64,000 nt of DNA, taken from assembly GCF_030684315.1 (NCBI RefSeq), contig NC_081365.1, positions 24,616,062 through 24,680,061 on the forward strand, in the 5' to 3' direction. The translations under genes and the position numbers were made by a program. Source of the stretch: Stegostoma tigrinum. Lineage: Eukaryota. Of this stretch, positions 11,777 to 43,298 are shown one piece after another. The notes under the pieces were generated by a model. The model was not told the DNA's origin. It ran no database searches and saw nothing but the letters and a program-made list of their open reading frames with translations. Within the stretch, counting starts at the first letter, position 1, and the number at the start of each line of letters is the position of its first letter.

Positions 11777-11918
11777 TGTCAGTATCAGTGTCACATTCTG
11801 ACTTTCCAAGTAAGGCTTTGTGCCCTGTTAGATAATAAACTCCTCTTTCCAAGCTGTGATTTAAATAATGAATCTCATGCTCTTATCACAGCCTAAAAGT
11901 GTTTAACTATCTTAGACA

Positions 11919-17029: not shown

Positions 17030-18840
17030 AAGATTTACGAGGATGTTGCCAGGGTTGGAGAATTTGAGCTGCAGGGAGAGGTTGAGTAGACTGGGGCTAT
17101 TTTCACTGGAGCGTCAGAAGCTGAGGGGTAACCTTTATAGAGGTTTATAAAATCATGAGGGGCATGGAGAGGGTGAATAGGAAAAGTCTTTTCCTGGTGG
17201 TGGGAGAGTCCAAAACTAGAGCACACAGAATTAAGGTGAGACAGAAAGATATAAAAGGGACCTGAGGAGCAACTTTTTCACGTAGACAGTGGTGCATATA
17301 TGGAACGAGCTGCCAGAGGAAGTGTGGAGGCTGGGATGATCACATTTAAAAGGCACCTGGATGGGTATATGAATATGTATCAGTGATAATGGGAACTGCA
17401 GATGCTGGAGAATCCAAGATAACAAAGTGTGGAGCTGGATGAACACAGCAGGACAAACAGCATCTCAGGAGCACAAAAGCTGATGTTTCGGGCCTAGACC
17501 CTTCATCAGAGAGGGGGATGGGGAGAGGGAACTGGAATAAATAGGGAGAGAGGGGGAGGCAGACCGAAGATGGAGAGAAAACAAGATAGGTAGAGAGGAG
17601 AGTATAGGTGAGGAGGTAGGGAGGGGATAGGTCAGTCCAGGGAAGATGAACAGATCAAGGAGGCGGGATGAGGTGGTAGGTAGGAAATGGAGGTGTGGCT
17701 TGAGGTGGGAGGAAGGGATGGGTGAGAGGAAGAACAGGTTAGAGAGGCAGAGACAGGCTGGGCTGGTTTTGGGATGCGGTAGGGGGAGGGGAAGAGCTGG
17801 GCTGGTTGTGTGGTGCAGTGGGGGGAGGGGACGAACTGGGCTGGTTTTGGGATGCAGTGGGGGAGGGGGAGATTTTGAAGCTTGTGAAGTCCACATTGAT
17901 ACCATTGGGCTGCAGGGTTCCCAAGCGGAATATGAGTCGCTGTTCCTGCAACTTTCGGGTGGCATCATTGTGGCACTGCAGGAGGCCCATGATGGAAATG
18001 TCATCAAGCGGAGGCTTGGGGTCCGCTTTGCAGAACACCTCCGCTCGGTTCACAACAAACAACTGCACCTCCCAGTCGCGAACCATTTCCACTCCCCCTC
18101 CCATTCCTCAGACGACATGTTGATCGTGGGCCTCCTGCACTGCCACAATGATGCCACCCGAAGGTTGCAGGAACAGCAACTCATATTCCGCTTGGGAACC
18201 CTGCAGCCCAATGGTATCAACGTGGACTTCACAAGCTTCAAAATCTCCCCTTCCCCTACTGCATCCCAAAACCAGCCCAGTTCTTCCCCTCCCCCCACTG
18301 CATCACAAAACCAGCCCAGCTCATCCCCTCCCCCCACTGCAACCCAAAACCAGCCCTGTCTGCCTCTGCCTCCCTAACCTGTTCTTCCTCTCACCCATCC
18401 CTTCCTCCCATCTCAAGCCGCACCTCCATTTCCTATCTACCACCTCATCCCGCCTCCTTGATCTGTCCATCTTCCCTGGACTGACCTATCCCCTCCCTAC
18501 CTCCACACCTATACTCTCCTCTCTACCTATCTTGTTTTCTCTCCATTTTCGGTCCGCCTCCCCTTCTCTCCCTATTTATTCCAGTTCCCTCTCCTCATCC
18601 CCCTCTCTGATGAAGGGTCTAGGCCTGAAATGTCAGCTTTAGTGCTCCTGAGATGCTGCTTGGCCTGCTGTGTTCATCCAGCTCCGCACTTTGTTATCTT
18701 GCGTATATGAATATGAAGGGTTTGGTGGGATAGGTGCCAAATGCCGGCAAATGGGACTCGGTTTATACAGGATATCTGGTCAGCATGGATGAATTGGACT
18801 GAAGGATCTGTTTCCATTCTGTATATCTCTATGTCTCTAA
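17030..18840 (+). mobile_element. CR1 3' fragment split by the PLE palindrome at 17378-18702
   Basis: RFTRMLPGLE...LRGNLIEVYKIMRG...WNELP before the insert. The 3' UTR resumes after 18715. Confidence 0.8.
17378..18702. mobile_element. PLE family A tail-out inverted insertion (minus arm to ~18008, plus arm from ~18005)
   Basis: GIY-YIG C-terminal coding sequence on both strands. 13-bp TSD GTATATGAATATG at 17365-17377 and 18703-18715. CAAG microhomology at the central join. Confidence 0.92.
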
Positions 18841-20364
18841 GCCTGATGGGTTTCAATTTGCAGTGAAACTTTAGTATAAAAAGAGTGCCAACAACTTCTC
18901 TGTCTTTCTTTTTTTCTCCATGCTGATAGTTTAAAGTTTTGGATAGTAATTGATATAGTAAAATGATTTGATTTACTCATGGCACTAACCATAGGGTAAA
19001 GGTGATTCATCAAATGCCATCAATTTTGACTTTTACAACAGTTTGGGTTTCACATACTGCAAAGCAAAGCATCTGTGGAATTCGGCTTCTATGTAATCCT
19101 ATTCAGTCCTGCATGTAATGCTTGGAAAAAATCTAATAGAAAGTCATCTAGAATTACATTGTATGAAATGTACCTTTACAGCAACTGTTAAAGGAAGCTT
19201 TGAAAGATTTACTCCTTATTTGAAATTGCATGTGGCTGTTTCTTTGTTCTTCTTGACATTGGATCTAAACACCCTGTCAAAGGTTCACACTGAGTAACTG
19301 TATTTTGGATGCAGGAATGCCATGATGAAAATATGTCTGTCAAACCGCATTGCCCAGATTATAGTCAATGCTTGAAAAAACAAACCCCAAAGTATTTGGG
19401 AGAGGTAAGTTTACAATTCGCAAATCCTGGCAAAATTAAGAATGATCCCTGTGAAGAATGTTGCTGGAGTCTTAGTCAGTTACTACACTGCTCACAGTGA
19501 TAGAATATTATCTATCAGGAAAGGCCCTGTCTTTGATTGCTGGGTTGCACTGTGTTAGTTGATCTCAACCACTTAAACTTTAAGTGTTCCACATTCAGCT
19601 ACTGTGCTATTGAGGTAGTACATAATTTTAAAACGTATGTGAAGTTAAAAGCTAAAAACCAATGGTGACAACATTAACAGGTAACTGCAAAAATGCATTT
19701 TTATAAGATTTTGCTGATATCTTAACACAAACTTTCTTCAGTTTCTTCCAAATGGCTCTGGAAATGTTATACAAACACAGTGAGCATTTTCCCACTAATA
19801 TCAGCAACACTAACATCTTGCTTGATAAAGCCTAATTGGGTGTTCTATGAATATATAGCAAAGTTTCAACATATTAAAGATTAATTTCAAGAATTAATTT
19901 CTAAATTAGTTTTAATTGCTGCCTTACTGCAAATAAGATCATTTGAACTGTACAATTAGGTCATACTCATTAAATACAGTAGAAGGTGGTCATGTGAGAC
20001 TAAAGACATTAAAAATGAGGTTGGGGGAGTGCTGCAAACTGATACGTTAACAGTCTACACCACACAGAAGCAACGCAGAGATCAATGTCTGCCATTCTTT
20101 TTCCGAAGATTCCACTTGGCGATTTGGGAAAATCAGGGAGCACACCAGAGTCAAAGAATTTCTCCACAGGGAAGAAGCAAATCGATCAACACATGCATAA
20201 TTCTTTCAGCTAATTACACAGTGGAGAGCCAGGGAACAGGTTGCATATTCAGCCTGTGAGCAAGACAAATGGTGCGCAGTTGAGTTGGGAGGAGAGAAGT
20301 AAAAATAAGAATTGAAGTGAATTAGAAAAGTAGGGGAAAAAATACCAAGTTTGACCTTGCTGCA

Positions 20365-20695
20365 CTGTTTTCTTCTCCTCATGGGATGAGGGCACTGCTG
20401 ATTGGGCAGCATTTACTGCCCACCCCTAATTAGCCAGAGGGCAGGTCAGTCAACCACATCACTGTGGGTCTGGAGTCACATGTGGGCCAGGCCAGGTAAG
20501 GATGGCAGTTTCCTTCCCTGAAGGACATTAGTGAACCAGATGGGTTTTTCTTGACAATTGATTCATGGTCATTATTAGACTGTTAATTCCAGATATTTTT
20601 CTGCCATGGCTGGATTTGAACCTGGGTCCCCAGAATGGTACCTGGGTCTCTGGATTAACAGTCTAGCAATAATATCACGAGGCCATTGCCTCCCC
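20365..20695 (-). mobile_element. tRNA-headed SINE (possibly Deu-domain / SacSINE1-like)
   Basis: Minus strand reads gggaggcaatggcctcgtg...caggttcaaatcc (B-box). Related copies at ~26435-26670 (+), ~35490-35860 (-) and ~51410-51680 (-). Confidence 0.6.
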
Positions 20696-22069
20696 ATATG
20701 ATAGCAGTCATATTCCACACTGGCTGAGGTCACCATGATGGACTCTTCCTCTGAACCTGTCCCATAGCCTGTGGTGTGGTGATACTTGGATAAAACCACC
20801 ACCAGTTGTCTCTCTCTGCAGGCCTGCGGTCTGGTAAGACTATGGCAACTTTGCATTCAATTAGGGCTGCAATTGGTGCAAGAGCTCTTTGACTGCATTG
20901 CCAATTCTTTGCCTGTAAGTGATCAAATTATATTTCAGAAAAATATTCCTATGTTGCCTGAAGTGGTTGACAGATGACATATAGCAATGATTGCAGAACT
21001 GCTACCCTTCTATAAATATCACACTAAACGACAAATTTGCTGAAGTTTAGTTGTTCTTTATCTTAGCACTCTATCTGAGTCTGACTTAAGCCTGATGTTT
21101 TATTAGTTTGAGTGACACCTTCAATGTACATGCCTTCACTCGGGCAAGCCCTCAGCTTCCAATTGGAAGCAGCACAATAGCTGGCCAATGTTCTCATCAA
21201 GTTTATTCACTTCAGCATAGCCACAGTTCAGTTTGGTCAGGTGGGTCATTCACCAGACAACACATCATTAGTGGGTCTGGAGATGTTTTAACTTGTGAAA
21301 TGCAGTGTCCCTCAAGGTCAAAAAACAAAGATATTATGGATATAACTTAACAGAAGACAAAAATGTGTTTTACTCACATTATAAGGAAAAATTGATGTAT
21401 GATTTATGAAAAAGAATGACAATACTTTGAATAAAAAATTAGAGATCAGTGTTTCAATGAATAGATAATCTTAATTTATGAAAAGGTGCTAATAGGTGAG
21501 TTGTTCTGCACAGTTTATTTTGATAATTTGATTTTGATATAAATTTGCAGTGTAACTTTTCAGTAATTTTATAGATTGATATAGCATGGTGGAGGCCATT
21601 TAACTTTCACTCAGGCAAACAGGCAAGAGATGTGAGACCATTGGAAGTATTTTGACCTATTTAATGAAATGAGGGATGATACATTCCTAAATTGACTTTA
21701 AAATCTTTAACTTTTCTGTAATTAACATAATAAAAGGTCCCAATGGATTGATAGAGGTTGACATGAAAGCTATGACTTCACTTTCCCAGGAAAACATGGG
21801 TTAAGTTAGACTAAAGTTGAGTTGAATTCAGGTGTGTGCCTGTCGTTTGGGTGCTGAAGGGTCAAACTTAAGGAAGCAAGCCCAGCTTTCCTGTTTAAAT
21901 AAAATGCAGACACAAGAAGCTGATTCAGGGTCAGCTACATACATCGCTAAGGATTGCAATGTTCGAAGTTCAAAAGGAAAGGTTGCTTTTAAAGAGCTAT
22001 AACTTGTTTTAAAAGATAGAGATGCTTTGATAGGGACAGAAAATCACCAAGTTGCTTCCTATGTTATCA

Positions 22070-22192
22070 GAAGGGTCTAGGCCCGAAACTTTAGCTTTTG
22101 TGCTCCTAAGATGCTGCTTGGCCTGCTGTGTTCATCCAGTTTCACATTTCATTATCTTGGATTGTCTAGCATCTGCAGTTCCCATTATCTCT
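22070..22192 (+). mobile_element. PLE family A 3'-terminal fragment
   Basis: gaagggtctaggcccgaaac...gcatctgcagttcccattatctct matches the full-length terminus. Confidence 0.85.
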
Positions 22193-22369
22193 AGAACTGA
22201 AAAGAGCTGTGTTTCTTTGCAATTCTATACCTCAGACAGCTGTGGATGCAGTCACTGAGGACATTAAAAATAGAGGTCCAAAGACTTCTAGGTACCGTTC
22301 ATACTGACGAAATGAAGTGATACTTTGTTTATGCAGATAATACAGCTTTTTCAGAATACAGTTAGGAGA

Positions 22370-23570
22370 GTAGATAAAGGAGAACCAATGGATTTTTTGA
22401 ATTTTCAGAAGACTTTTGATAGTGTCCCTCATAAGATGTTAGTAGGCAAAGTTAAAGCACATGGAATGGAATAATGCATTGGCTTGTATGAATTAATTGG
22501 CTAATAGACTGAAAGCAGAAAGTGGGAATAAAAGAGTATTTTTCTGAGTGATAGGCAGTGACTTGTAGGGTATCACCAGGATTAGCGCTTTGGCTATTTA
22601 TGATCCACATAAATGACCTGGAAGAGGGAACCAGATGCAACTTTTCCAAATTTGCTTGCAGCACAAAACTTTGTGATTTGTGAGTTGTGAGGAGGATATA
22701 AAGAGGTTTCAGGCTGATTTAGATGAATTGAGTGAGTGGGCAGATGGATTGCAGATGCAGTATGATGTGGTTAAATATACTTTTTATACTTCAGTATGAA
22801 AAGCAGAAATGCTGAGTATTATTTAAATGGTGATATTTGGGAAGTGTGGATGCATGAACATATCTGGGTGCCTTTGTACACTAGTCAAGAAAAGCAGACA
22901 GGCAGGTGCAATGTGCAATTGGGAAGGCAAGTGGTATATTGGCCTTTACTGCAAGAGGATTGGAGTTCTGAAGTGGGATATATTATTGTAATTATACAGA
23001 GCCTTAGTGAGAGCCTTAGTGAGATTATTGCATGCAGTTTTGGACTCCCTACCTAAGAAAGGGTATACTTGCAATACAGGAAGTGCAGCAGAGGTTCACT
23101 AGGCTCATAATGACAATGGTAGAACTCTCGTATGAGGCAGGATTGATTCAACTGGGCTGTTATTCACTGTTGTTTTGGAGAATGAGAGGGGAAACTGAAT
23201 GAAACATGTAAAATTTTAGCAGAGCTGACAAGCTAGATGTAGGGAGGATGTTTTCCCTGGTTGGGGAGTCTAGAACCAGGGACACAATCTCAGCATACTG
23301 AGTAGACCATTTAGGACTGAAGTGAGAAAAAGTTCTACACTCAATAGAGAGTGAACTTGTGGAATTCTAAAACACAGAAGGCTGTAGAGACCAAGATGCT
23401 GAATATGTTCAGGAAAGAGATATTTTTTAGATGTTAAAGATATCAGGTGTTTGGGGAGAAAGTGGGAATGTGACATTGAACTAGAGGATCATCCATGATC
23501 ATATTGAGTGGGTGGAGCAAGCTCAAAAACCTAGATGATCTACTCCTACTCCTATTTTCTTTGTTTCCAT
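22370..23570 (+). mobile_element. Old CR1 LINE relic, followed by opposite-strand CR1 relics at ~23575-23950 and ~24280-24720
   Basis: Decayed FQK.FD.VPH, INDLEEG and ..SKFA..TK motifs, plus a CR1-like 3' UTR. Confidence 0.7.
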
Positions 23571-26434
23571 GTTTACCCAGTCTACAGTTTTCTGTAGTTT
23601 CCTTTTGTCATCTTCACAACTTACTTTCTCACCTGCCTTTGTATCATCAACAACTTCAGTTTCCACTCCTTCATGTAAATCATTTATATAAATTGTAATC
23701 AGTTGACGTTCAGGCTCAATGATTCCAATGATTCTTGTGATACACCACCCTTTACATTTTGCCAACCTGAAAATGACTATTCTATGCTCAGACCCTGCTT
23801 CTTGTTTCTCAGCCAACTTTCTATCCATGCCCAAGTGTTACCTCCTACACCATGAGCTTTTCCCAATAATCTTTTATGCGGCCTTCTGGAAATCTAAGTA
23901 CGGTACATTTATCAATTCCCCTTTATCCACAGCACGTTACATCCTCAAAGAACTACAACACATGAAATGCCCAGAATCCCCTATGGCTACACCATCTTTA
24001 AAAATCCTGTCTGTACCTGAATGAGCACTGCCATTTTGAAACTGCCCTGCTTGGCCAAGGTCAGAATCTGAAGATATCAGAGTAAGGGAGGATGGCACTG
24101 TGATTTTCTCATGGGATCTGGAAGTCCTGGTGGATGGCATAATCTGGAAGAGAGGAGATGATCAGCAGAGGAGGCCATGACATAGGACCCTCCAACAATT
24201 GGTCAAGCATGATTTTTCTTTCACAAAACTATGTTGATGCTGCCTGATTACCTTGGATGTATCCAACTGGCCTGTTAAAACTTATTTAATAATAGCTTCT
24301 AACATTTTCACTACTACAGATGTTAAGCTAGCTATTCTGTCATCTCCTACTTTATGTCTGGCTCCCTTTTTAAATAAAGGGCAACTTTAACTATCTTTCA
24401 ATATAATGATATAATGATACCACCCCTGAATCAAGAGAGGTGTAGAAAATCTATCATCAATTATCAACTGAGAGTATCAATTATTTCAGTAGCCATTTTT
24501 ATCAAGGGCCTAGGATGGAGATCATCACGACATGGATGTTTGTCAGCCCAAAGCTTAAATCTCCTGAGATCCTTCCCTCCATTCCATTTTTATCACTGCT
24601 CTGGGATATTATTTCTATCTTCTATAATGAAAACTGATGCAGAATTCTTGTTGAATTCAACCATCATTTCCTTATGCTCCATTACTATTTCTCTAATCTC
24701 ACTTCTTCTAGAATGAACACTCTATTAACTTGTTAAATAAAAACAATATATGATGGATCCTGGTAATCTGAAACAAACACAGAGAATGTTGGACAAATTC
24801 AGTAGGTCTGGCAGCATTTGTGAAGATTGGGAGAGAATCAGAGGTGACGTTTTGAGTCTGATATGGCTCTTCTTGAGAATTGATGTGGAGACAAACAGGT
24901 AGTTGCATGATATGCTGCTGTGTTGCAGCTCCTGGGTGATGAGGGCCATTATGTCCCTGATACCTACCTGTTGCTGCTGCTCCTCCCGTGCATTTGTTTG
25001 ATGCTCCTGATTGTTGACATCACAGGGTCATCTCCTTCCACGAGCTGAGCTGGTGCCTGATCTCCATCAATCCTCAGTGTGTCAGCAGCTCAGGGCCATT
25101 TCTTTCTTTGTTCACTGATGGCCATTCCTCTAGAGCCTGGTGATGGCGTTGACACAGGTGGTGACCTCAAATGAGGCTGGCAGACTCTCACTGCATGGCC
25201 TCTTTGTCTGATCATCTGGGAAACAGACAGCTCTCTTCATTCTGACAGATCCCTGTCAGAAAATTACGGTGCTATCCTTCACTTCCTTGATTTCTTCAGA
25301 CTGTCCTTGACTGAGCAGGGCAGCTTCAGAATCCATCCATCAGTGTCCATCCAGGTACACAGCAGCCTTTTAAAGATGGTGTAGCCATAGGCGATGCTAG
25401 CGTTTTGGCACATGCCTGCTGAGTCATGAATTGTTTTGGGAATGGCACGTACTTGGATGGGATAGAAATTTGATGTACGAGACAGCATGGGACATGGTAC
25501 ATAATTAAAGTGGCGATTTAATAAGATAAGGCAAGAAAGCGCGCTAGCCCACATGGCAAAAAAAAAACCCTTCAAGAACTTTGATGCTACTTGGCCTAAG
25601 CCAAAAACATATTGGATTCATCCCATAATGCTGATTATCGTTTGAAGAGTTTTGTAAACATTTTGGAAGTTAAAATTGGCCAAGGAGCGCAAACGAACAC
25701 AATCCTACTTGAGTAAGAGAATATTAGCTGCAGTGTCTCATGGGTTGCAGAATTGATATTGAGTGAAGGTAGCAGAAATGGAAAGTTGGACACAGAGGGA
25801 AGAAAAGGTGAAAGACTCTCATTAAAGTTTAGAACCGCTTTCTGTATTTAGTGTACACATCTCCCTGCTCCCTACTCACTCAGCCAATGTGCAGAATGCA
25901 TGAGTTTTACCAAAGAGGTGTTGACTAAGCTGTGCCAATGTCTGCAACAGCATAGAATAACAGCACAGTGTGACCAGTGGCTGTCACCATGTCCAGGCCC
26001 TTAAGATCCAACCAAGTGGCAGCAGAATACATTAGCAACATCTTACCTTCCATTTCTCTTTCAGGGAGGTGATAGCGGTTCTATGTACGAGAAGGGTATT
26101 CACAATCTTCTCACTGGCTGGAAGAGTGACCACATGGATTTGTGGATCCCCGTGTTAAAAGGGAAATGTTTTGTGATGCAAGAGCCAGCAAGGCATAGGG
26201 ACCAGTTGGTGTGCAGCTATGATCAGAAGTTGTGATTGGAAATTTCTGCTAACCTGACAGTACCCTCTACAAATTTGTCCTGTGTCAGATGGTCATGCCT
26301 GCCAAAGATCTTCATGAAGATTCATAGTTTGGATGCCAGATGAGAAGAACTACTTACTCCATACATGGGTTATGACTTCCCTCTGCCACCCAGCCACACA
26401 ATTTGCCTATAATGAATGATGCAAAGCAGAAGAT

Positions 26435-26670
26435 CGTGGTGTAGTGATAATGTCACTTGACTAGTAATCAAAAGGCCTAGACTAATTTGTGGGAGCATGG
26501 GTTTGAATCTCACCACAGCTATTGGTGGAATTTAAATTCAATTAATAAATCTAGAGTTTAGAGCTTGTCTCAGTGATCATGAAACTTTCACCAATTGTTG
26601 TAAAACCCCCTCTAGATTCCTAATGTGCCTTAGGGATGACACCTGCCATAGTTGACCTCCAGTGACTCCT
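26435..26670 (+). mobile_element. tRNA-headed SINE, same group as 20365-20695
   Basis: gtggtgtagtg A-box-like and gggtttgaatct B-box-like motifs; body similar to the reverse complement of the 20365 copy. Confidence 0.55.
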
Positions 26671-27072
26671 TTAAAGACAGTTTTAAAAAGTTTTTGATTC
26701 TGGACTGAAATAGAAAAATGACTGGGTTAAAAGCCAAGGATTGCTGCATTTCTTAAAAGTAAGTAACCTGACACTGCAAGCGCTGTTCGGTGGTGAGCTT
26801 CTTGAATGTTGCTGAAGCTGCATTCATCCCGATAAGAATATTGCATCACACTCCTGAAATGTGCTTTGAAAATGGTGTACAGGCAATGAACAGACAGGCA
26901 GTGAGTTATTTGTTTCAGAATACCTAACCTTTGACCTGTCCTTGCTATTTGATTCCATGAACCGCTGAGGTCTTTTCCACTGGCAATACTTGAGTTGTTA
27001 ACTGTTCGCTTGAGATTGAGTGATGGATTGGCTGTTCAAGCAGAAACTCATGGGTATCTGAAAACAGACATA

Positions 27073-27775
27073 TATGGAAAATAAAATGTGAAACTTGACA
27101 AGGCGTTACACAAGATCACCTCAATTAAACAGCTATATATTAATAAAAGTATAATACAACCATAGGGGGTTAGAACGGGGAACAAGAGCTAATAAATCAG
27201 TTCAACACAATTGACTGTATTAAATAAACACAGGACAACTGAATTTGATCAATTAGTCAGGCAGACTAACTCTAGTTTAGTCAAGTAGTCTAATTAAAAC
27301 CAGACACTCATATCAGCATGTTTAAGAATAAATGTAGATAAGCAAATACTAGTATGAGGTAATTGAGACCACTTAGGGATTTAAAACCATTGCGGCAAGA
27401 TAGCAGCAGACATCTAATTTTAATAGAATAAATTAGAGATAACTCTGAAGTAGAAAAAACCATTGTGGCAGAAATAGAGATGCATAATCATTATGCTATG
27501 AATTAAGTAGAGGAAGAAAAAACCATAGTGGCGGAGGTGGAAAGATAACAGGACTAACATCATTGGGTTACTGAGAGATAACCCTGGCTAACACAGTTGC
27601 ATGTGCTGATAAGCCAGACAAGAAATGTGAGAACAAAAAGGTATAAGAACGGTAAGCCCGAGTAGCTCAGGGGGCATTCTTGAAGGATACTTCCGGACTG
27701 TCACGGCTTTTATTTGCAAATAAAAGTTTATTTTCTTGGGGAACTCTCTGCGTCTCCAGGTGTTTTTCTACCACA
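27073..27775 (+). mobile_element. Probable solo LTR
   Basis: Ends TATGGAAAA...TTTCTACCACA (imperfect inverted termini, left TG mutated). Flanked by CATA at 27069-27072 and 27776-27779. TATAA at 27642 and AATAAA at 27719. Internal repeats of aaaaccatwgyggc. Confidence 0.55.
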
Positions 27776-30700: not shown

Positions 30701-31941
30701 ATTACATTTCAAAGACATTTGGATAAGTACATGAATAGGAATGGTTTGAAGAGATATGGGGAGGCATTAAGTTTAGTTTGGGATTATGTTTAGCAATGGA
30801 CTGGTTGGACTGAATGATCTGTTTCTGTGCTGTATGAATCTGTAATCTGTAATATAAATGCTGAAATCTTGCACGTTTGTCTATGTGGGTTATGACTTCA
30901 GGGTAACTGCAGGAATCTTTAATGAACAACAGGTACCACTATATTATTGGCGCACTGCTGGAGCAAGGGCCTGGTGACTTCATCAGTATCCCAATTCACC
31001 ATCCTGCTCACCTACTGTACTTGAGTAAATCTATTTCAATCAACTGGAATTTTTACACTAATGACCTTAAACAACCCATCCAATTTATTTTACCATTATT
31101 AAGTATGAATTCATTAACAAATTGTTAAACTCAGCCAAGAAACCATGGGGCACACAGCAAGTTAATGGACAATGTAATATCCAAGGAAAGTAATGGGGCC
31201 TACATATTATTACTGTTGATCAGGTGACACACTTAAACATGGAAGTTAATGCCTAGGAGTTGAAAAATATTAAAATCGTAGTACTCATCAGTATTCAGTT
31301 TAAGGATACATTTCATGTGAGTAATCACAACTCTGCTCAAAAACAACCAGAATAAAGGGGCTACTTTAACACAAAGTGCAATAAATATACATTTTGTGCC
31401 TTTGTGTCAGAAAGTATGCCAGCTTTCCTTGAATGTAAAAAGCCTGAAGATATTTTGCTGAATTTAACCACAATGCTATGCACAAGACAATTACATGGAC
31501 CTTAGCACAGCAGTGTCATTTTAAGCAGCACGCCCAACAATCTGTGTTTTTGAAACAGTTTATTTTTGTAAGGCAATTTTAATGAAACCATCCTGTTTTC
31601 ATACATAGAGTTTTATCATCAAGCTACACAGGCTGGTAATAGATGATATGGAACAGAAGAATGGCAAGAGTGCAAAAATAAGGGTTTAACTTGCTCAAGG
31701 TTATTCTCGTTTCAAAACCTGAAGGACATAACTTGAAGATAAGTGTGATGTGTTTATTGCCACCCAGATATATAAATTTAAAATATTGAAACTGAGCAAT
31801 AACCGATTCTCCCTTCTACATGAAAGTTAGTGCAAACACCTTAAATGGCTAAATGAGTTCAACACACAAGCACTTAACATTAGAGAATAAACATAGTTTC
31901 ATGTTTATGCAATATGGAGAAGAAGCTTATATATTGAGAAT

Positions 31942-34900
31942 TCCAAGATAATAAAATGTGAGGCTGGATGAACACAGCACGCCAAGCAGCATCTCAGGAG
32001 CACAAAAGCTGACGTTTCGGGCCTAGACCCTTCATCAGAGAGGGGGATGGGGAGAGGGAACTGGAATAAATAGGGAGAGAGGGGGAGGCGGAGCAAAGAT
32101 GGAGAGTAAAGAAGATAGGTGGAGAGAGTAAGGGTGGGGAGGTAGGGAGGGGATAGGTCAGTCCAGGGAAGACGGACAGGTCAAGGAGGTGGGATGAGGT
32201 TAGTAGGTAGATGGGGGTGCGGCTTGGGGTGAGAGGAAGGGATGGGTGAGAGGAAGAACAGGTTAGGGAGGCAGAGACAGGTTGGACTGGTTTTGGGATG
32301 CAGTGGGTGGGGGGGAAGAGCTGGGCTGGTTGTGTGGTGCAGTGGGGGGAGGGGATGAACTGGGCTGGTTTAGGGATGCAGTAGGGGAAGGGGAGATTTT
32401 GAAACTGGTGAAGTCCACATTGATACCATTAGGCTGCAGGGTTCCCAGGCGGAATATGAGTTGCTGTTCCTGCAACCTTCGGGTGGCATCATTGTGGCAC
32501 TGCAGGGGCCCATGATGGACATGTCATCTAAAGAATGAGAGGGGGAGTGGAAATGGTTTGCGACTGGGAGGTGCAGTTGTTTGTTGCGAACTGAGCGGAG
32601 GTGTTCTGCAAAGCGGTCTCCAAGCCTCCGCTTGGTTTCCCCAATGTAGAGGAAGCCACACCGGGTACAGTGGATGCAGTATACCACATTGGCAGATGTG
32701 CAGGTGATCCTCTGCTTAATGTGGAATGTCATCTTGGGGCCTGGGATAGGGGTGAGGGAGGAGGTGTGGGGACAAGTGTAGCATTTCCTGCGGTTGCAGG
32801 GGAAGGTGCCGGGTGTGGTGGGGTTGGAGGGCAGTGAGGAGCGAACAAGGGAGTCACGGAGAGAGTGGTCTCTCCGGAGAGCAGACAGGGGTGGGGATGG
32901 AAAAATGTCTTGGGTGGTGGGGTCGGATTGTAAATGGCGGAAGTGTCAGAGGATGATGCGTTGTATCCGGAGGTTGGTAGGGTGGTGTGTGAGAACGAGG
33001 GGAATCCTCTTTGGGCGGTTGTGGCGGGGGCAGGGTGTGAGGGATGTGTTGCCGGAAATACGGGAGACGCGGTCAAGGGCGTTCTCGATCACTGTGGGGG
33101 GAAAGTTGCGGTCCTTGAACATCTGGGATGTGTGGGAGTGGAATGTCTTATCGTGGGAGCAGATGCGGTGGAGGCGGAGGAATTGGGAATAGGGGATGGA
33201 ATTTTTGCAGGAGGGTGGGTGGGAGGAGGTGTATCCTAGGTAGCTGTGGGAGTGGGTGGGCTTGAAATGGACATCAGTTACAAGCTGGTTGCCTGAGATG
33301 GAGACTGAGAGGTCCAGAAAGGTGAGGGATGTGCTGGAGGGTGGAAGGTGTTGGTGAAGTGGATGAACTGTTCGAGCTCCTCTGGGGAGCAAGAGGCGGC
33401 GCCGATACAGTCATCAATGTACCGGAGGAAGAGGTGGGGTTTGGGGCCTGTGTAGGTGCGGAAGAGGGACTGTTCCATGTAACCTACAAAGAGGCAGGCA
33501 TAGCTGGGGCCCATGCGTGGAACAGTCCCTCTTCCGCACCTACACAGGCCCCAAACCCGACCTCTTCCTCCGGTACATTGATGACTGTATCGGCGCTGCC
33601 TCTTGCTCCCCAGAGGAGCTCGAACAGTTCATCCACTTCACCAACACCTTCCACCCCAACCTTCAGTTCACCTGGGCCATCTCCAGCACATCCCTCACCT
33701 TCCTGGACCTCTCAGTCTCCATCTCAGGCAACCAGCTTGTAACTGATGTCCATTTCAAGCCCACCGACTCCCACAGCTACCTAGAATACCCCTCCTCCCA
33801 CCCACCCTCCTGCAAAAATTCCATCCCCTGTTCCCAATTCCTCCGCCTCCGCCGCATCTGCTCCCACGATAAGACATTCCACTCCCGCACATCCCAGATG
33901 TCCAAGTTCTTCAAGGACCGCAACTTTCCCCCCACAGTGATCGAGAACGCCCTTGACCGCGTCTCCCGTATTTCCGGCAACACATCCCTCACACCCTGCC
34001 CCCGCCACAACCGCCCAAAGAGGATTCCCCTCGTTCTCACACACCACCCTAACAACCTCCGGATACAACGCATCATCCTCCGACACTTCCGCCAGTTACA
34101 ATCTGACCCCACCACCCAAGACATTTTTCCATCCCCACCCCTGTCTGCTTTCCGGAGAGACCACTCTCTCCGTGACTCCCTTGTTCGCTTCACACTGCCC
34201 TCCAACCCCACCACACCCGGCACCTTCCCCTGCAACCGCAGGAAATGCTACACTTGCCCCCACACCTCCTCCCTCACCCCTATCCCAGGCCCCAAGATGA
34301 CATTCCACATTAAGCAGAGTTTCACCTGCACATCTGCCAATGTGGTATACTGCATCCACTGTACCCGGTGTGGCTTCCTCTACATTGGGGAAACCAAGCG
34401 GAGGCTTGGAGACCGCTTTGCAGAACACCTCCGCTCAGTTCGCAACAAACAACTGCACCTCCCAGTCGCAAACCATTTCCACTCCCCCTCCCATTCTTTA
34501 GATGACATGTCCATCATGGGCCTCCTGCAGTGCCACAATGATGCCACCCGAAGTTTGCAGGAACAGCAACTCATATTCCGCTTGGGAACCCTGCAGCCTA
34601 ATGGTATCAATGTGGACTTCACCAGTTTCAAAATCTCCCCTTCCCCAACTGCATCCCTAAACCAGCCCAGTTCGTCCCCTCCCCCCACTGCACCACACAA
34701 CCAGCCCAGCTCTTCCCCCCCACCCACTGCATCCCAAAACCAGTCCAACCTGTCTCTGCCTCCCTAACCTGTTCTTCCTCTCACCCATCCCTTCCTCCCA
34801 CCCCAAGCCGCACCCCCATCTACCTACTAACCTCATCCCACCTCCTTGACCTGTCCGTCTTCCCTGGACTGACCTATCCCCTCCCTACCTATACTCTCTC

Positions 34901-35104
34901 CACCTATCTTCTTTACTCTCCATCTTCGGTCCGCCTCCCCCTCTCTCCCTATTTATTCCAGTTCCCTCTCCCCATCCCCCTCTCTGATGAAGGGTCTAGG
35001 CCCGAAACGTCAGCTTTTGTGCTCCTGAGATGCTGCTTGTTCATCCAGCCTCACATTTTATTATCTTGGAATTCTCCAGCATCTGCAGTTCCCATTATCT
35101 CTGA
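31942..35104. mobile_element. PLE family A 3.2-kb tail-out inverted insertion (minus arm to ~33517, plus arm from ~33516)
   Basis: RT motifs MGPSYACLFVG and FLRYIDD plus GIY-YIG on opposite arms. 14-bp TSD TATATATTGAGAAT at 31928-31941 and 35105-35118. Confidence 0.95.
33517..34767 (+). pseudogene. 5'-truncated but uninterrupted PLE ORF (416 aa: RT YIDD, thumb, Cys/His linker, GIY-YIG, Pro/Ser tail)
   Basis: Open frame with FLRYIDD, KPTDSHSYL..SSHP, CNRRKCYTC and VVYCIHCTRCGFLYIGET. No native start; the frame begins at the inversion join. Confidence 0.88.
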
Positions 35105-37384
35105 TATATATTGAGAATGTTGTGTTTTTCATTCATATGCATATAATCTACAAATACTCTCGAGTTTGAAAGTGTACATTTTCAGCAGGGAGACAATCCT
35201 CAGTACAGACCTAAAATGAGTGGAGTTCACAAAAGAAGTTGCCTGACTGAAACTACGGCTGTTTAATTTCAGATGTTGTATCGCGTCTTACAAGATCTAT
35301 CACTGAACATCAGTCCTCCAGCATATAGAATGTTCAAATAAAATGCATCCTTAATATAAAATAGTGGTTTATGCTCATTGCCTCTGCTGAATCATAAGGT
35401 CTTAATATATTTTATCAATTAGTACTTCCCAAACTGCATTTTGGTTAATACGTTTTGTACAAAACACAATTATCTTCAAATGCTTTTAATTCACTCGCAG
35501 GATGTGGATGTTGTTGATAATGCTAGTATTTATTGTTCACCTCCAATTACCCTTAAGAAAATAGAATTGAGCTGTCTTCTTTAATATAATTGACTGCCAT
35601 TGCAGAAAACAGTTAAGAGTCAACCGCAAAGCTGTGGGTTGGAAGTTATATATAGACCAGAGCAGGTAAGGCTGGCAAAGCAGTAGTAAAGCAAATAAGA
35701 TTTTAACAACAGTCTGATAGTTTTATTCTCCCTGTTATTATTAGTAGATACTCACGCCACATATATTTAATTAAATTCCCAAGTGCCATGGCAGATTCAA
35801 ACTGCCTCCAGATTATTAGGCTGGTCCTTTCCCAGGCTAGTCCAATAACCAATATGTGGTTATACCTACCTGCAAGAGACAGAAACTTTTCAACATGCAA
35901 TTATAATCAATTAGATGTTGTGTAGGCAAATGCATCTATTCTGCACACAGTATGATCTTCCAAACTAGAATAAGTGAATGAATGAACATTTTGTCTGAGC
36001 TGTGGAAGGAATGTTTTCTATGACACTAAACAAAATTCCTTGTTTTTCAAATGAGACCATGAGGTCTGAAACATTCACATGAAAATAGTGAGCCTTGCCT
36101 TGGAATTAAGGATAGCACCTTCAACAGTACAGCAGTCCTTTCATTATGGTGCTCGAAAGCACTGAACCTGCAAACTGCTGATTCAGAGGTGTTAACAGCT
36201 GAGTGAAGCTGACTCTTCATAAGTATTGTCTTCTCTTTCAAAAAGGTCAGGCTGGATTTTAATTCCATGCAGGTGGATGTGCTTTGAATGTGTAAAAATC
36301 TTGACTGTAATTCTGTAGACAATGCACACCTCCCCACCAAATCAGAAAAGCAGAAACAGAAAGCTACAAAGAATCATATGAAAACATGGCCTTAGATGGT
36401 TGAGGGTTTTGAAAAAGGATCCAGCACTGCTAGAACTGACTGAAGTACGGTGGTTCAGAAAAAAGCTCCCAATATGATGAAATGTATTGCACCTCTCACT
36501 TTTGCCAAAAGTAAATGATACAGTAACACTCTCATCACAGAAATGTGATTTTTCCGTATCCACAGATAATAGCATTCAGCACCTTTAGAAAATATATCAG
36601 AATAATTGGAGGACGTCACTTACACAGATACTGACAATGAAGTGTGACTTGGATGGTGTTACAGTTCTCAGGGAATCCCAGTTGCTGTGGCAACGTGCAC
36701 TTTCCTATGTGTTTGTTGTCTGGAGGTATCAGACTTAAACAATCTTTCTATCTCTTTCCAGAGATTTCTCCCAAGCTTGTCATTAGCATTTCTGGGAAGA
36801 GTTTGCAAGTTAATATTGAGCCTGTTTTGCTGTGTTATGAACACATCCTTGACCATCAAGCTCTGGAGTGAGTCTTGAATTTAGAGGTTCTGGCACAGAG
36901 GCAGGAACACTATCCGTGCACCACTTTACATGGAAACAAATATTTAATCCAATGAGATGTAGAATTAGCTTTTGGTCAGTGTGACCTATTAATAAGAGTT
37001 GGAAGCAAGTAGCATTAGGATGAAATGACTTTAAAGAAAGGTGAGTATGAGATCTGTGGAGATTGAGAACTAAAGAGCTAAATAGAACTAAATAGAAAAA
37101 ATGTAGAATAAACAGCTTAAAACAAAATGGGACTTAAGTAGAGTTAAGCAGAAGAAAAAGAGTTAACAAGTTAAGGATAGGAAAAGAAATGAAGGAGGGG
37201 ATGGGGAAAGAGAAATTAGGGCTGAAAATTAGAGAAAATGTTGAAACAAACACACTGTAAGGATTCAATGAAAAAAGAGTGATAGCGAGAGAACCAAGGA
37301 AGAGTCTCAGAGGTGACAGCCAGGAACTGCAAAACATCAGGAGGACAGGGAACACCAAATTGGAGGAGAGAAAGCAAGAGTGAA

Positions 37385-37524
37385 AACAGGCCGACGTGAC
37401 AGTCTGCAGATGCTCTAAGTCTGACATTAAAACAGAAGGCGTTGGAGAGGCTTAGTAGACCCTGCAGCATCTGTGGAGAGAGAAACAGGGTCGACGCTTC
37501 GAGTTCAATGTGACTCTCCTTCAG
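37385..37524 (-). mobile_element. Old PLE-type terminal fragment with decayed hammerhead motif
   Basis: Minus strand CTGAAGGA-GAGTC..GAACTC-GAAGCGTC, followed by ctccacagatgctgcag. Similar fragments at ~24760-24877, ~40170-40259 and ~560-620. Confidence 0.6.
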
Positions 37525-37719
37525 TTAAAGCATAAAAAGGTGATGGAAGGACAAAACGCTGGAGGAAAGGTATAACCTATTCCTGTTCCTCAAACTTGGA
37601 GATGCATCAGCCAAACGGATCCATCAAATCAGCAGGACAACGGAAGAGAAAACAGGAGGAAAACTAGATGAAAAATAAAACGACTTTAAAAGAAGCAGAT
37701 GAGACTCTGAAACTATAAG

Positions 37720-38830
37720 GTAAGAATAAGGCGGTTTAGGGGATGCGGGGGGAGGGTTTACAATCAGCATAAACTTCAGCGGCGAATCATTCCTCCCGGT
37801 TTACAAACCAACACGGCTCCCGCCTTCTGGAAATCTGAGAAGTTTGAAAGATGAAATCAGCGGTGGGCTTTCCTTTCAGCGGCTCAGTGTGTGCGCGCAC
37901 AGCGCTCCAGCGGCTGAAACACTCCACTCCCCAGCACCCGCCCCCCCCCCCCCCCGCCTCCAAACCCAAATCCTACCAGAACATTACAGCGCCGCATCTG
38001 TTCCTGTAGCAATCGGGGAGCGGGGGGGTGGGACGTCTTTTTTTCTCTCTTAAATCCCCCCGGGGAGGTGGTCAGCACCAGTCAATAATTGCTGACATGG
38101 AACGGAGGCCCGAATAGGCTAAAGGGAGGGGAGAGAAGGATATCTGGAGGTGCACGAGAAAATATGCAAAAAGTAATAATGCAAAAAGTTGCAGTCAGGT
38201 TGATTGAATGGAAAGTTCAAACTGCCCCGGCTCACAGGAAATACTCCAGCGCTGACGGACTGAAGATCTGCGCTTGACATGAGCCGAGAAACAACCGCCT
38301 CGGATGTAAACATTGTGGGAAAACAAAACAAAGAAAGAGAGGAATTTGGTGGACGGAATAACATCTTTTTTTTGCCTGTGTGTTCGCTTTGTTCAATGAC
38401 TGGAGTGGAAAGTAACTGGGAAGTTGGTTCCAAGGCTGCACTGTTGATTGCAATGCTGCATTAGTGAGTGGCCGGAGGGAGCCGGAGTGGGTCTGTCAGT
38501 ACCGTCCTCCCGGGAGAGGCACCCTCTGCCCATCAGCAGCCCGGAGCAATGCCAGCCCCTGCCGGGGACAGCTTGGACAATCCCGCCCTGGGAGATCTGC
38601 ACATTTCCACCTCGGACCTTCACCTTCCCCTTCCCGTCGCCCGCGTTTCCCGAGAGGCGATCCGGAATTTCCACCACACCAAGCGGGTTGGAAGTTACCT
38701 GATTGGGAGGAAGTTAGGAGAGGGATCTTTCGCCAAAGTTAGGGAAGGGTTGCACGTCCTGACCGGGGAAAGGGTAAGTTTTCCCCCCGCGGCTCGCTTC
38801 TGCTTTTGAATTTTACGTTCACGTGGATCC
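37720..38830 (+). promoter_or_regulatory. CpG island / promoter and 5' UTR region of HUNK
   Basis: Local rise in GC and CpG against a CpG-poor background. GC-box-like tracts at ~37936-37960 and ~38015-38035. Spans coding exon 1. The TSS cannot be determined from sequence. Confidence 0.7.
38549..38773 (+). CDS. HUNK: HUNK kinase, coding exon 1 (MPAPAGD...KRVGSYLIGRKLGEGSFAKVREGLHVLTGER)
   Basis: ATG at 38549 in context GCAATGC. Contains the kinase Gly-rich loop LGEGSFAKV and closely resembles the vertebrate HUNK N-terminus as I recall it. Donor AGG|GTAAGT at 38773/38774, phase 0. Confidence 0.93.
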
Positions 38831-39287
38831 TTGCGTGTCAATTGGCTGTAGCGTTTGTATGTCCCAAGACAAAAGTGTGTTGTGAATACTTTCACACGTA
38901 CAGGCAAGATCGCTGCAAACTCCGGTGTTTTCAGTTGCAATGACAATTGATGGTGCCTTTCAATAATCCCCACTCCCCGTTCCACATTGCGTTGGAAATA
39001 CATATTCGGCATCTAGGTGGAAGGCGGTAAATTCAATATTTCTGGTGGATACCACTAGTCAGAAGTCTCCTAATCTCTAATAGACACCGTTGGACCAAAG
39101 TTAATGTGAACTTGTGATGGATGCAGGTCAGAGGCTTGTTTCCATTCCAGGAAGAACTGCTCTCAGCAGGCCTTCCCCTTTGAGTTACACATTTGGCCAG
39201 CAGTCCATCAAATCGTGGAGACCCTTGGTCACTGTGTTAACCTGTGATGGTTGCTATAGAGAGCCCCTCTGTCGAAGGTGGGGTGAT

Positions 39288-39603
39288 CATAGAATCCCCA
39301 CAGTGTGGAAATAGGCCCTTTAGCCCAATAAATCCACACCGACCCCTGGAGCATCCCATCCCACCCACTCCCCCCCCATAACCCCCTAATCTACACACCC
39401 CTGAACACTATGGGCAATTTAGCATGGCCAGTCCACCTATCCTGCACATCTTTGAACTGTGGGAAGAAACGGGGAGCACAGAGGAAACCCAACTAGACAC
39501 GGGGAGAATGTGCAAACTCCACACTGACAGTCGCCTGAGAATGGAATATAACCCAGGTTCCTGGTACTCTGAGGCAACAGTGCTAACCGCAGAGCCACCA
39601 TGC
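39288..39603 (-). mobile_element. HE1-like SINE in HUNK intron 1
   Basis: Reverse complement of the 9447-type SINE, with tail gggattctatg. Confidence 0.85.
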
Positions 39604-42204
39604 TACTCTCAAATAATCTATGAAGAGAATCCATATCTGAAGCTGTGATTGAGACGCCATGGTCAGAGAGGTGTGGTTAATTGTGATTTCTATCATTGTT
39701 CAGAATGTGTTAACATCTGACAGAACCCTTGGCCAGGAGTGTGTTAGCTTATTCCTTTAGCATTTGAGTTAATGTGCTTTCAGTGACAACACATTTCCAA
39801 CATTTATTTTTAATTTCAAATCTCCCACTTCCCAAATCCCTGCTGACCTCATAAAGGTCTGATTGATGAATTTTGCTATTCTCACAGCAGTTTGGCAGCA
39901 CAAAGTGCTGAGATAATGTACTTCACTACATCCTTCTGGCCTGATGATACTACATCCTGACTCCCGAGGGTACGACCCACCGTTGCGCTAAAAGCCATCA
40001 TATCTTGTCCAGTGGGTCGTCAATGTAATACTGAGCTTGCATTTCGAGAAAATTTTCAGGTTTGTACCTGCTTTCTGTTGAAAGGAAAATGCTATTTGTG
40101 GGACTGGACTTTAAAATCTCCCCATCTTTAAGGCAAAACCAGTTTAAATAAAACAGATAGAGAAATTAAATCGAAAATGCTGCAAATACTCAGCTCATCA
40201 GGTAGCATCTGTGAAAAGAGAAATTAACTTAACATTTCAAGTCAGTGACTTTTGATCAGGAAAATGTTGAGCTTGAATGACAATTAACAATCAGTACAAA
40301 TATTGATTCCACCCATGACTGCAGCCGTGGTACCCAATTTCCATTATCCTATCTTCATGTAATTAACACTAAGAGATGATTGAAACGCTAATAGATTGGA
40401 TAAAATTAACTAAACTGAAAGGGCAGCTGACACTGTTTGAATAAGCTTTCTGTCAATTTTTTTAGCAGGGCCTGCACTGAATGAAATTCAAAAACAATTT
40501 TTGTGAGTTTCTATTCCAATACGTGCTGATTGCACACTCATCTTCCTTTATGAATTCTGTTTGTTTTAACTTATAACAAAGAATACCAATGATTATTTGG
40601 GCTGCACAGACCCTTTTTTACAAATCCAGTTAATTCAATGCCATTTCATCTTGTCCTTTCATTTGGGGCATATAAAATTCTGTATAATTTTAGTTGAAGT
40701 CTAGACTAGCGAGAGTTGTAATAACAGTGGTGAATTCAAAATATTCATTTTGTGCAAATTCCAAAGATTTGTTCAGTTTAAACTAAAAACCTCTACTCAG
40801 CTAACATCACCCTGATTACCCTGGTGATCTTCAAAAGACTTTTTAGTCAGCTTGGTGCTGGAATGGGAGTGTCAAATCAATGTTGGAAGTAATCCCTGCA
40901 GTCTAAGTGCATGTCTCTAAAGTAGCAGACTACAAGTATTCTGTAGAATGCACAATCACAAGACCATAAAATGGTCTAATCTCATGCTTCTGCTGAAGGA
41001 GGATAGCACAGGATACAATTGATTGTAGCGGAAAGAAAATGGATAGGGATACTTATCCATTAAAATAGAAAACATGCAGTAGCTTTTGTTTCAGTCAATT
41101 TTTAGAATTCATTGAGGGAATGTGGGCATCATTTATTGTCCTTCCCTAGTTGCCCTTAGAAGGTGGTAATGAACTGCCTTTTGCAACTGTTGCAGTCACT
41201 TGGTGTATGTGCACCTACAATGCTGTTAAGGGTGCGCATCAACGACTTTAATGTAGCAACAGTGAAGGAACAATATATTTCCATGTAAGGTTGCTAGTAT
41301 CTCGAATGAGAACTTGCAGGTGGAAGGTGCTGCCAAAGGTATTTTGGTGAAATTCTGCAGTGCATCTGGTAGATGATACACTGTGTTGCTACTAAGCATC
41401 AGTGATGGGGGAAATGAATGTTTGAGGATGTGATGCCAATGAGCAGGCTGCATTTTCCTCGATGATGCCAAACTCTTTGAATGTGGTTGGAGCTGCATTC
41501 ATTTAGGCAAGTGGGAAAATAGTATCACACCCCTGACCTGAGTGTTATTGGTGATGAGCAGGCTTTGGGGAGTTAGGACATGAGTTACTCATGGCAGGTA
41601 TCCTAGACTCTGACTTGGTCTTGTTTCAAAAATATTTATATGACAAGTCAGTTCAGTTTCTGGCTAATGAATGGAGCTTGATGAAGACTCGCCATTGCTG
41701 TTCCTCCTCCCCCTCCCAATCTTCTGCAAAAATCACTTGTGATGAATTAATCACCAGATGAATTCCTGTTTTACCTGTCACACTGACATGTGAGTATCAG
41801 AGTTAGTGTATGGCCCTAATGAGCTGTGAGACAGTACATGGTCAGAGTGAGTGACTTCCTTTGAGGAATAGATGTTATCCTCTAGCATCATCCTTTGTCA
41901 GACACTTGTGAGAGGGCCAAGACATGAATTAGATCTGTCAAGGTAAGAAGAAGCTTGTTTTAATAATATTTCCCTCTTTGCTAGCATCATGTCAACATGA
42001 GTGAGAGCTGGATGCCATGTGGTGGTGTAATATTTAGTTCTGTTTACTTGTCGCCAAGAGTCCTCATGACCCCAGTTCCAGTGACTAAGCACATCACAAT
42101 CTGCTGACATCCAAGACCTTCTTTGTGGTTGTCAGTTGGATGATTGATGTAGGATCATCTGTGAATCTTCCTGACATCCTGATAAAGGAGATCAAGAAAC
42201 TATA

Positions 42205-43284
42205 TCAGAGATAATGGGAACTGCAGATGCTGGGGAATCCAAGATAATAAAGTGTGAATCTGGATGAACACAGCAGGCCAAGCAGCATCTCAGGAGCACA
42301 AAAGCTGACGTTTCGGGCCTAGACACTTCATCAGAGAGGGGGATGGGGTGAGGGTTCTGGAATAAATAGGGAGAGAGGGGGAGGTGGACCGAAGATGGAG
42401 AGAAAAGAAGATAGGTGGAGAGGAGAGTATAGGTGGGGAGGTAGGGAGGGGATAGGTCAGTCCAGGGAAAACGGACAGGTCAAGGAGGTGGGATGAGGTT
42501 AGTAGGTAGAAGATGCAGGTGCGGCTTGGGGTGGGAGGAAGGGATGGGTGAGAGGAAGAACAGGTTAGGGAGGCAGAGACAGGTTGGACTGGTTTTGGGA
42601 TGTAGTGGGTGGAGGGGAAGAGCTGGGCTGGTTGTGTGGGGAGGGGACGAACTGGGCTGGTTTTGGGATGCAGTGGGGGAAGGGGAGATTTTGAAGCTGG
42701 TGAAGTCCACATTGATACCATTGGGCTGCAGGGTTCCCAAGCGGAATATGACTTGCTGTAACAGCAACTCATATTCCGCTTGGGAACCCTGCAGCCCAAT
42801 GGTATCAATGTGGACTTCACAAGCTTCAAAATCTCCCCTTCCCCCACCGCATCCCAAAACCAGCCCAGTTCGTCCCCTCCCCCCACTGCACCACATAACC
42901 AGCCCAGCTCTTCCCCTCCACCCACTGCATCCCAAAACCAGTTTAGCCTGTCTCTGCCTCCCTAACCTGTTCTTCCTCTCACCCATCCCTTCCTCCCACC
43001 CCAAGCCGCACCTCCATCTCCTACCTACTAACCTCATCCCACCTCCTTGACCTGTCCGTCTTCCCTGGACCGACCTATCCCCTCCCTACCTCCCCACCTA
43101 TACTCTCCTGTCCACCTATCTTCTTCTCTCTCCATCTTCGGTCCGCCTCGCCCTCTCTCCCTATTTATTCCAGAACCCTCACCCCATCCCCCTCTCTGAT
43201 GAAGGGACTAGGCCCGAAACGTCAGCTTTTGTGGTCCTGAGATGCTGCTTGGCCTGCTGTGTTCATCCAGATTCACACTTTATT
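42205..43284. mobile_element. PLE family A 1.1-kb tail-out palindrome in HUNK intron 1
   Basis: Arms meet at ttgctgt|aacagcaa (~42759/42760) with essentially no spacer. 14-bp TSD ATCAAGAAACTATA at 42191-42204 and 43285-43298. Confidence 0.93.
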
Positions 43285-43298
43285 ATCAAGAAACTATA

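Follow-up and report, generated by a model that had tools for sequence, protein, structure and literature searches.

The 64,000-nucleotide (nt) window analysed here, the whole stretch taken from contig NC_081365.1 of Stegostoma tigrinum, contains ten stretches with a common 3' end, of which eight form four head-to-head pairs (E1, 11914-12142; E2, 17378-18701; E3, 31936-35106; E4, 42203-43287) and two are single (S0 and S5). The window is rich in repeats, which seem to resemble those of cartilaginous fishes. The four pairs are head-to-head insertions of a 5'-truncated Penelope-like retrotransposon of the Neptune/Nematis type, an assignment that leaves very little room for doubt, and the asymmetry of their ends is the Penelope tail. 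This asymmetry is an already described hallmark of Penelope-like elements, the element itself is a new member of a known family, and internal initiation at two sites has also been published. The junctions yield two rules that any model of integration must meet, namely imperfect 8-nt matching between primer and template at the short end, and the location of the tail on the shorter arm. We see about an even chance that two reverse transcriptases (RTs) begin on a single RNA at points ~35-40 nt from each other and take the two overhangs of a staggered cut as their primers, one each, with the leading enzyme making the longer, tailless arm; every step of this mechanism beyond the junction sequences is inferred, and the samples are small.

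A Penelope-like element with asymmetric ends

Only the C-terminal half of the open reading frame (ORF), with the RT followed by a GIY-YIG nuclease, is present in the window. The ORF of E3 carries a YIDD motif, a CNRRKCYTC linker and then the nuclease domain, which scores 22.8 bits against the Pfam GIY-YIG cut-off of 22.6 when taken alone and 19.7 bits when the whole remnant is scored. At E <= 1e-20, 123 longer proteins were matched among 2380 candidates, most of them with RVT_1, and the top homologues, which have RVT_1 and other domains in common, are 45-54% identical. The linker cysteines C239, C244 and C247 are invariant in 16 of 16 aligned sequences, and among the CCHH residues of the nuclease C282 and H304 are invariant and C285 and H320 are kept in at least 90% of the alignment. 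In the accessible portion of PMC8557442, a CX2-5CxxC linker between RT and nuclease is a defined feature of the Neptune and Nematis clades; the element has such a linker and, like these clades, CCHH residues in the nuclease, and judged by these motifs its anatomy is that of a Neptune/Nematis-type Penelope-like element (PMC8557442 and PMC4209133, each available in part).

As described in the available parts of PMC8557442 and PMC3846280, endonuclease-bearing (EN+) Penelope-like elements resemble the present insertions in having an RT with a C-terminal GIY-YIG, 5' truncation, an inverted truncated neighbour copy and a target-site duplication (TSD), as well as a 30-40 nt tail that is often at one end only; they also have a hammerhead-type core in the terminal repeat. 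All four palindromes consist of a 5'-truncated copy with an adjacent inverted copy inside one TSD, and a putative hammerhead-type core (CTGATGA...GAAACGTC, with a GGG/CCC stem) lies ~90 nt before the short end and is conserved in distant relatives. Rfam returned no hammerhead match in 10000-44000 at E <= 1, its other matches being sub-threshold microRNA and snoRNA hits, mostly on palindrome centres, and the stem of the core was scored unpaired in a fixed-register stem check. No partial tandem arrangement with direct pseudo-long terminal repeats (pLTRs) is present in the window; the common continuation past the tail in public reads, described below, is consistent with such an arrangement. Folding of the terminal region was no better than shuffles (z -1.1 to +0.8), and therefore no stem-loop is claimed at the start sites. 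A 30-nt pattern had no match in viral, metagenome or genome contigs, a protein alignment search of viral contigs gave no relative, and a PDB sequence search gave no match.

Tails have been mentioned before, as a tail of 31 bp carried by one inverted pLTR of a rotifer Penelope-like element (PMC3846280) and as 34-bp repeats at the ends of Drosophila Penelope (PMC2377424), each in the accessible part of the source. The available portions of PMC8557442 and PMC3846280 place the tail at 'either end' or on 'one of the inverted pLTRs' and tie it neither to arm length nor to target pairing, and the available part of a 2026 retrozyme preprint holds nothing on tails. A literature search for a polarity or pairing rule, which did not cover older primary papers, turned up neither. 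How the tail and the head-to-head inversion arise is described as an open question in the accessible literature on Penelope-like elements. TSD length is a point of difference, being 13-16 nt here against the 8-10 nt reported for rotifer elements in the text available.

Each of the four palindromes has exactly one tailed (full) and one tailless (short) end, in agreement with the first-pass annotation, which had been made from the sequence alone. Exact TSDs are 15, 13, 14 and 14 nt long in E1 to E4, with A+T making up 10-12 of the positions, and a common stretch of at least 13 nt occurred in 2 of 2000 random pairs of 39-mers. In the four window pairs, the TSD starts 36-43 nt before the end of the partner arm, and the arm ends differ by 30-44 nt when overlap bases are counted as element. 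The overlaps of short end and TSD cited in that annotation are correct (GAGAAT at 31936-31941, ATC at 43285-43287, AGACA versus AGATA at 11914-11918), and the solo copy S0 (10226-11167) does end in the same short window. The overlap at 18702, which had been called poor, is actually better, TGG being common to the left TSD copy and the template; the junction base C at 18702 is probably a later substitution, since it matches neither the left TSD copy nor the template. Exact overlaps at the short ends amount to 1, 3, 6 and 3 nt in E1 to E4, which add up to 13 where ~3 are expected (p 0.0001-0.0009 under three nulls), so that microhomology in the window exceeds chance as had been proposed; p is 0.014 with E2 (18702) set to zero and 0.04 when the 6-nt case E3 is left out and S0 added. 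Both ends of the tail (42203-42250), the short and the full one, contain the 7-mer ATTATCT, which is also present at the short end in some distant relatives; it is possibly a recognition signal for both start sites.

Four public runs were aligned to 42140-42500 (361 bases, with the tailed arm of E4 as reference). The end piles given here are those among the positions listed, beside which at least 1091 further rows exist, and hence form no full histogram; X20 is bisulfite data with artefactual piles elsewhere, and X1 saturated the counter. Loose ends of X1 contigs fall at 42241 (474), 42242 (1321), 42243 (512) and 42245 (239), in total 2546 of 13,847 partly aligned contigs, and loose ends of raw X20 reads at 42207 (5929) and 42203 (2431), out of 51,061 partly aligned. 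Run X5 shows both ends, with 12 at 42242 and 11 and 13 at full ends. The modes of the short and full ends are 35-39 nt apart; the ends are therefore not uniform and pile in two places, which bears out the two end classes of the first-pass annotation. Loose ends at 42203 carry the same ten further bases (GTTAAAATTG) in X5 and X20, so that the element or its template appears to run beyond the 'full' end, with a consensus agreement of only 0.47-0.55 and 13 records in X5. The AATC kept in register in the consensus of the short-end pile was not counted as evidence of pairing and could be mimicked by a sister subfamily, whose variant 42240 C>T makes up ~8% of depth. Another 638 contigs of X1 end at 42335, which is the 5' border of the putative hammerhead core and the point from which the two E1 arms start; given this hot spot and the palindrome centre of E1 (12010-12011), many pLTR-sized mini-copies must exist. 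Among the best 15 of 328 joints, 38 X1 contigs connect a full end (42205, 42206, 42207, 42210) with an opposite-strand short end (42242-42243), the two having no letters in common; these are tail-to-tail joints without target DNA, which could derive from insertion into the tail of an older copy or from circular intermediates. The family is very abundant in the host, with 169,712 contig records on the 361 bases in one run, a contig depth that gives no copy number.

In LINE-1 twin priming, both target nicks prime one RNA, which results in an inversion within the TSD similar to E1-E4; LINE-1 inversions comprise non-overlapping parts of the RNA and start at the poly(A). Here, in contrast, both arms copy the same overlapping 3' region and poly(A) is absent, and a LINE-1 twin-priming inversion was rejected on these grounds. 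A foldback DNA transposon or miniature inverted-repeat transposable element (MITE) was also rejected, given the asymmetric ends and arms that are RT/GIY-YIG coding remnants. Long palindromes are prone to deletion, and the short ends might accordingly be later deletions of symmetrical inverted repeats, or the units MITE-like; yet the short ends lie directly against intact TSDs of 13-16 nt, contigs in the thousands end within a 5-nt span and the arms encode RT and GIY-YIG. The intact TSDs refute this explanation, which has virtually no chance of being right.

Target-template matching and the polarity of the tail

Relatives were retrieved from metagenome contigs via protein alignment, giving 79 loci, 33 of them with an inverted repeat of at least 40 nt. 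Eight head-to-head pairs of element 3' ends lie around the protein match (L009, L010, L025, L028, L038, L056, L065 and L078), and the other inverted-repeat loci were classed on inspection as internal inversions, contig edges or unrelated repeats. One tail per pair is found in 7 of these 8 pairs, and the main-arm ends of the relatives are bimodal (7 full, 14 short, 3 unscorable). The tails of the relatives, measured from the TSD start, are 56-75 nt long and exceed those of the window. For the pairing test, the five pairs with clean 13-16 nt TSDs were taken.

When the first 8 TSD bases are compared with the template in register, 21 of 32 positions match in the window (null 10.2, p 6e-5) and 24 of 40 in the five relatives (null 14.2, p 5e-4). 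The nine junctions together give 45/72 matches in register against 14-26 at twelve shifted registers; by position, 6, 5, 7, 6, 6, 5, 4 and 6 of the nine match at positions 1-8, followed by 2, 1, 3, 1 and 2. Swapping TSDs among insertions leaves 2.1-2.7 matches per junction, the best or joint-best register among 25 is used by 7 of the 9 insertions, and the signal persists for window lengths of 4-12. Many matches sit behind a mismatch that shows the target base and were therefore never copied from the RNA; such matches would be what a loosely paired primer leaves behind. Similarity at the short end is better described as imperfect 8-nt pairing than as exact microhomology. The first-pass annotation had taken the short end for an internal, microhomology-guided priming window: an internal site, spread over ~10 nt, and a similarity above chance are both found, and it is the exactness of the microhomology that gives way to imperfect pairing.

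The same annotation had the short end prime the first strand by microhomology and regarded the full end as the true 3' terminus of the RNA, joined to the second nick. Short-end homology above chance and the strong pile at 42207 are what such a model would predict, but we consider it very unlikely. The common continuation past 42203 in X5 and X20 speaks against a template terminus at this point, the full ends vary by at least 4 nt, and both ends of the tail are RT start sites in the only in vitro system published (PMC11167929). Furthermore, L037, a single, non-inverted relative, has a full end and a 13-nt TSD, so that the full site can start a first strand. The full ends in the window match the read-derived continuation at 18 of 32 first-8 positions against ~11 expected from composition, a hand count that was not simulated, and this is a weaker sign that the full ends may be primed too.

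The second rule concerns the arms. The spacer that separates the arms is part of the tailless arm in E2 (~105 nt), E3 (40 nt, RMGPSYACLFVGY) and E4 (1 nt), with E1 being a tie. The longer arm is tailless in all five TSD-flanked relatives and, with the window pairs, in 8/8 (p 0.008); the polarity becomes 10/10 when L056 and L078, which have no clean TSD, are included, and the reverse case was not seen in these pairs. A tRNA-Thr-derived head-to-head pair (L021:1735-2166), a SINE-like passenger with Penelope architecture, has a TSD of 13 nt and carries a tail of 46-47 nt on its shorter arm, and 4 of its 8 first TSD bases match the template.

Both arms of one insertion carry the same diagnostic non-CpG sites, nine in E2 and three in E4 (487 columns), and the arms of E3 have six such sites in common, which are also present in S0. 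These common diagnostic sites suggest one source per insertion. The palindrome centres comprise zero bases in E1 and one base in E4, the arms of E4 stopping 1 nt apart within the coding region.

A proposed tandem priming on one RNA and its rivals

In the mechanism that we favour, the GIY-YIG nuclease would cut both strands of AT-rich DNA ~14 nt apart and leave two 3' overhangs, as the observed TSDs suggest. Each overhang would then prime an RT at one of two internal RNA sites ~35-40 nt apart, downstream of the putative hammerhead; two internal start sites have been shown in vitro for PAc, a Poseidon element of the lizard Anolis carolinensis (PMC11167929). The statistical signal at the junctions points to an upstream (short) start that would be set by imperfect primer-RNA pairing of ~8 nt within a window of ~10 nt. 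Judging from the polarity, both enzymes would run in the same direction on one RNA, the upstream starter leading and making the longer, tailless arm, and the tail-end starter would trail, displace the complementary DNA (cDNA) of the leader and stop at or before the leader's stop. Because the upstream starter leads, its arm would be tailless and never shorter. The two cDNA 3' ends would finally be joined head to head and the second strands filled in, and the firing of a single primer would give a solo copy with either end type. Tandem synthesis on one RNA is the simplest way to obtain a single tail in each pair together with sister arms, the equal stops of E1 and E4 and the observed polarity.

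PAc is similar in having two internal RT starts that bound the tail, AT-rich targets, and cleavage and extension of both target strands; its hammerhead lies upstream of the start sites, as the putative core does here, and PAc is predicted to form a dimer (PMC11167929). It belongs to the Penelope/Poseidon clade and has been described without a linker zinc finger, whereas the element here has one. The start site of PAc is reported, in the part of the source available, to share no homology with the DNA that is cut; at the genomic junctions of the present element, by contrast, imperfect 8-nt matching is seen. The pairing rule qualifies the published in vitro claim of homology-independent initiation.

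The main rival is a hairpin or self-priming, in which one arm would be copied from the other by fold-back, for instance on an antisense template, the full end being primed and the short end arising, once trimmed or resolved by a nuclease, from a terminal microhomology join to the second nick. Antisense self-priming, which fits the polarity and the perfect centres, has been proposed in the accessible text of PMC3846280, and a tail from nuclease resolution in that of PMC8557442; sister arms, the zero- and one-base centres of E1 and E4, and homology at the short ends, as expected of terminal microhomology joins, would also agree with it. However, a fold-back templated by the sense strand puts the spacer on the tailed arm, the opposite of what is seen in 8/8, so that only the antisense version fits. 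Short-ended solo copies exist (S0 and six relatives without a detected partner), and RT starts at both tail ends in vitro (PMC11167929) likewise argue against a hairpin, which we hold to be rather unlikely.

It is distinctly unlikely, as we see it, that each of the two primers uses an RNA of its own on a dimer, so that the two cDNAs end independently of each other. Such an arrangement would give one short and one full end if the subunits bind differently, and it could draw on the dimer predicted for PAc (PMC11167929) and on three non-CpG sites at which one arm agrees with a different insertion. Nevertheless, it predicts no link between tail and arm length, yet 8/8 is seen, and no equal stops in the coding region, yet the arms of E4 end next to each other.

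Several observations weigh against tandem priming on one RNA. As to the arms, the three non-CpG sites split sister arms, as two sister RNAs might do; the perfect centres of E1 and E4 fit a hairpin equally well. As to polarity, 4 of 7 full-ended long arms in the relatives have <340 nt upstream, so that the partner of a counter-example could be hidden, and set against the 14/21 base rate of short-ended main arms the polarity of the relatives alone reaches p 0.06-0.13. L038 has two short ends, with no TSD found, and the 56-75 nt tails of the relatives mean that the spacing is no fixed protein footprint. As to pairing, exact overlap in the five relatives is at chance level (3 vs 3.9), there are only nine junctions, and the 8-base statistic was chosen after seeing the data; L009 and L065 in misassigned registers gave 19/40 for the relatives (p 0.02-0.03), and the TSD starts of E2 and L065 were moved manually past one mismatch.

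Tandem priming might also apply more widely. We suggest, tentatively and with less than even confidence, that Penelope-like elements integrate by tandem double priming, in which a dimer would hold two RT active sites a fixed distance apart and a 14-nt staggered cut would supply each of them with one 3' overhang; the leading site, at least, would align its overhang in telomerase fashion by imperfect 8-bp pairing, and the trailing enzyme would displace the leader's cDNA. If true, tandem double priming would yield the tail, the head-to-head inversion, the tail-on-shorter-arm polarity and palindromes of equal length, and it would extend to distant hosts and to non-coding passengers, as the tRNA-derived pair of L021 follows it. 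In telomerase, a DNA 3' overhang is aligned to an internal RNA site by pairing over a few bases and is then extended. The comparison is only one of how the two work, and differs in that there is no repeat addition here and the pairing is imperfect and opportunistic. The RTs of Penelope-like elements and telomerase RT are in a sister relation according to the accessible part of PMC8557442, and the pairing rule would bring the behaviour of Penelope enzymes closer to that of their telomerase relatives.

Feature coordinates and further observations

Table 1. Copies of the Penelope-like element in the window, with their arms, duplications and coding remnant.
Feature	Position	Strand	Remarks
E1 left TSD	11904..11918	.	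15 nt; final 5 nt overlap short end, 4/5 matching
E1 tailless arm	11914..12010	-	pLTR-sized; begins at putative hammerhead border
E1 tailed arm	12011..12142	+	putative hammerhead-type core 12015-12042; perfect palindrome centre 12010/12011
E1 right TSD	12142..12156	.	
E2 left TSD	17362..17377	.	exact 13 nt from 17365; 16 nt with one mismatch
E2 tailed arm	17378..18005	-	shorter arm
E2 tailless arm	18005..18701	+	~105 nt longer, at 5' side
E2 right TSD	18700..18715	.	exact part 18703-18715
E3 left TSD	31928..31941	.	14 nt; short-end overlap 31936-31941, 6/6
E3 tailless arm	31936..33517	-	longer arm; contains 40-nt spacer 33478-33517 encoding RMGPSYACLFVGY
E3 tailed arm	33518..35106	+	
ORF remnant in E3, open	33517..34767	+	RT YIDD motif and thumb, CxxxxCxxC linker, GIY-YIG nuclease
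E3 right TSD	35105..35118	.	
E4 left TSD	42191..42204	.	14 nt
E4 tailed arm	42203..42759	-	reference for read alignment
E4 tail proper	42203..42241	-	between full-end piles (42203, 42207) and short-end piles (42241-42245)
E4 tailless arm	42760..43287	+	1 nt longer; near-perfect palindrome centre
E4 right TSD	43285..43298	.	ATC overlaps short end
S0 solo tailless copy	10226..11167	+	5-nt duplication only (10221-10225, 11167-11171), chance level
S5 solo tailed fragment	22070..22192	+	TSD looked for, none found

The arms of E3 have private deletions, one of ~40 nt near 33339 (33336-33340 region) in the left arm, and one of 10 nt near 35036 and one of 8 nt near 34890 in the right arm. After the nuclease domain, 34640-34770 and its equivalents contain two to three tandem units of ~48 nt, which lengthen the ORF by a proline/serine-rich stretch past the end of the homologues. 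S0 seemingly interrupts another short repeat (10200-11390), with a few unexplained bases at its 5' junction. At L007:6031-8962 and at L024:6012-8633, an inverted-repeat element of 2.5-2.9 kb, which contains internal tandem repeats and has a near-perfect duplication of 10 nt, splits a related element, and both loci look like the same insertion.

Older, diverged pLTR/hammerhead-like remnants of related Penelope-type families are found at 14799-14895, 49137-49230, 55016-55110, 60227-60301 and 60544-60596. Two LINE 3' ends, 4516-5070 (+) and 5753-6900 (-), are 97% identical and lie tail to tail, 682 nt apart, within an older LINE fragment, and the longer of them (5753-6900) carries RVT_1.

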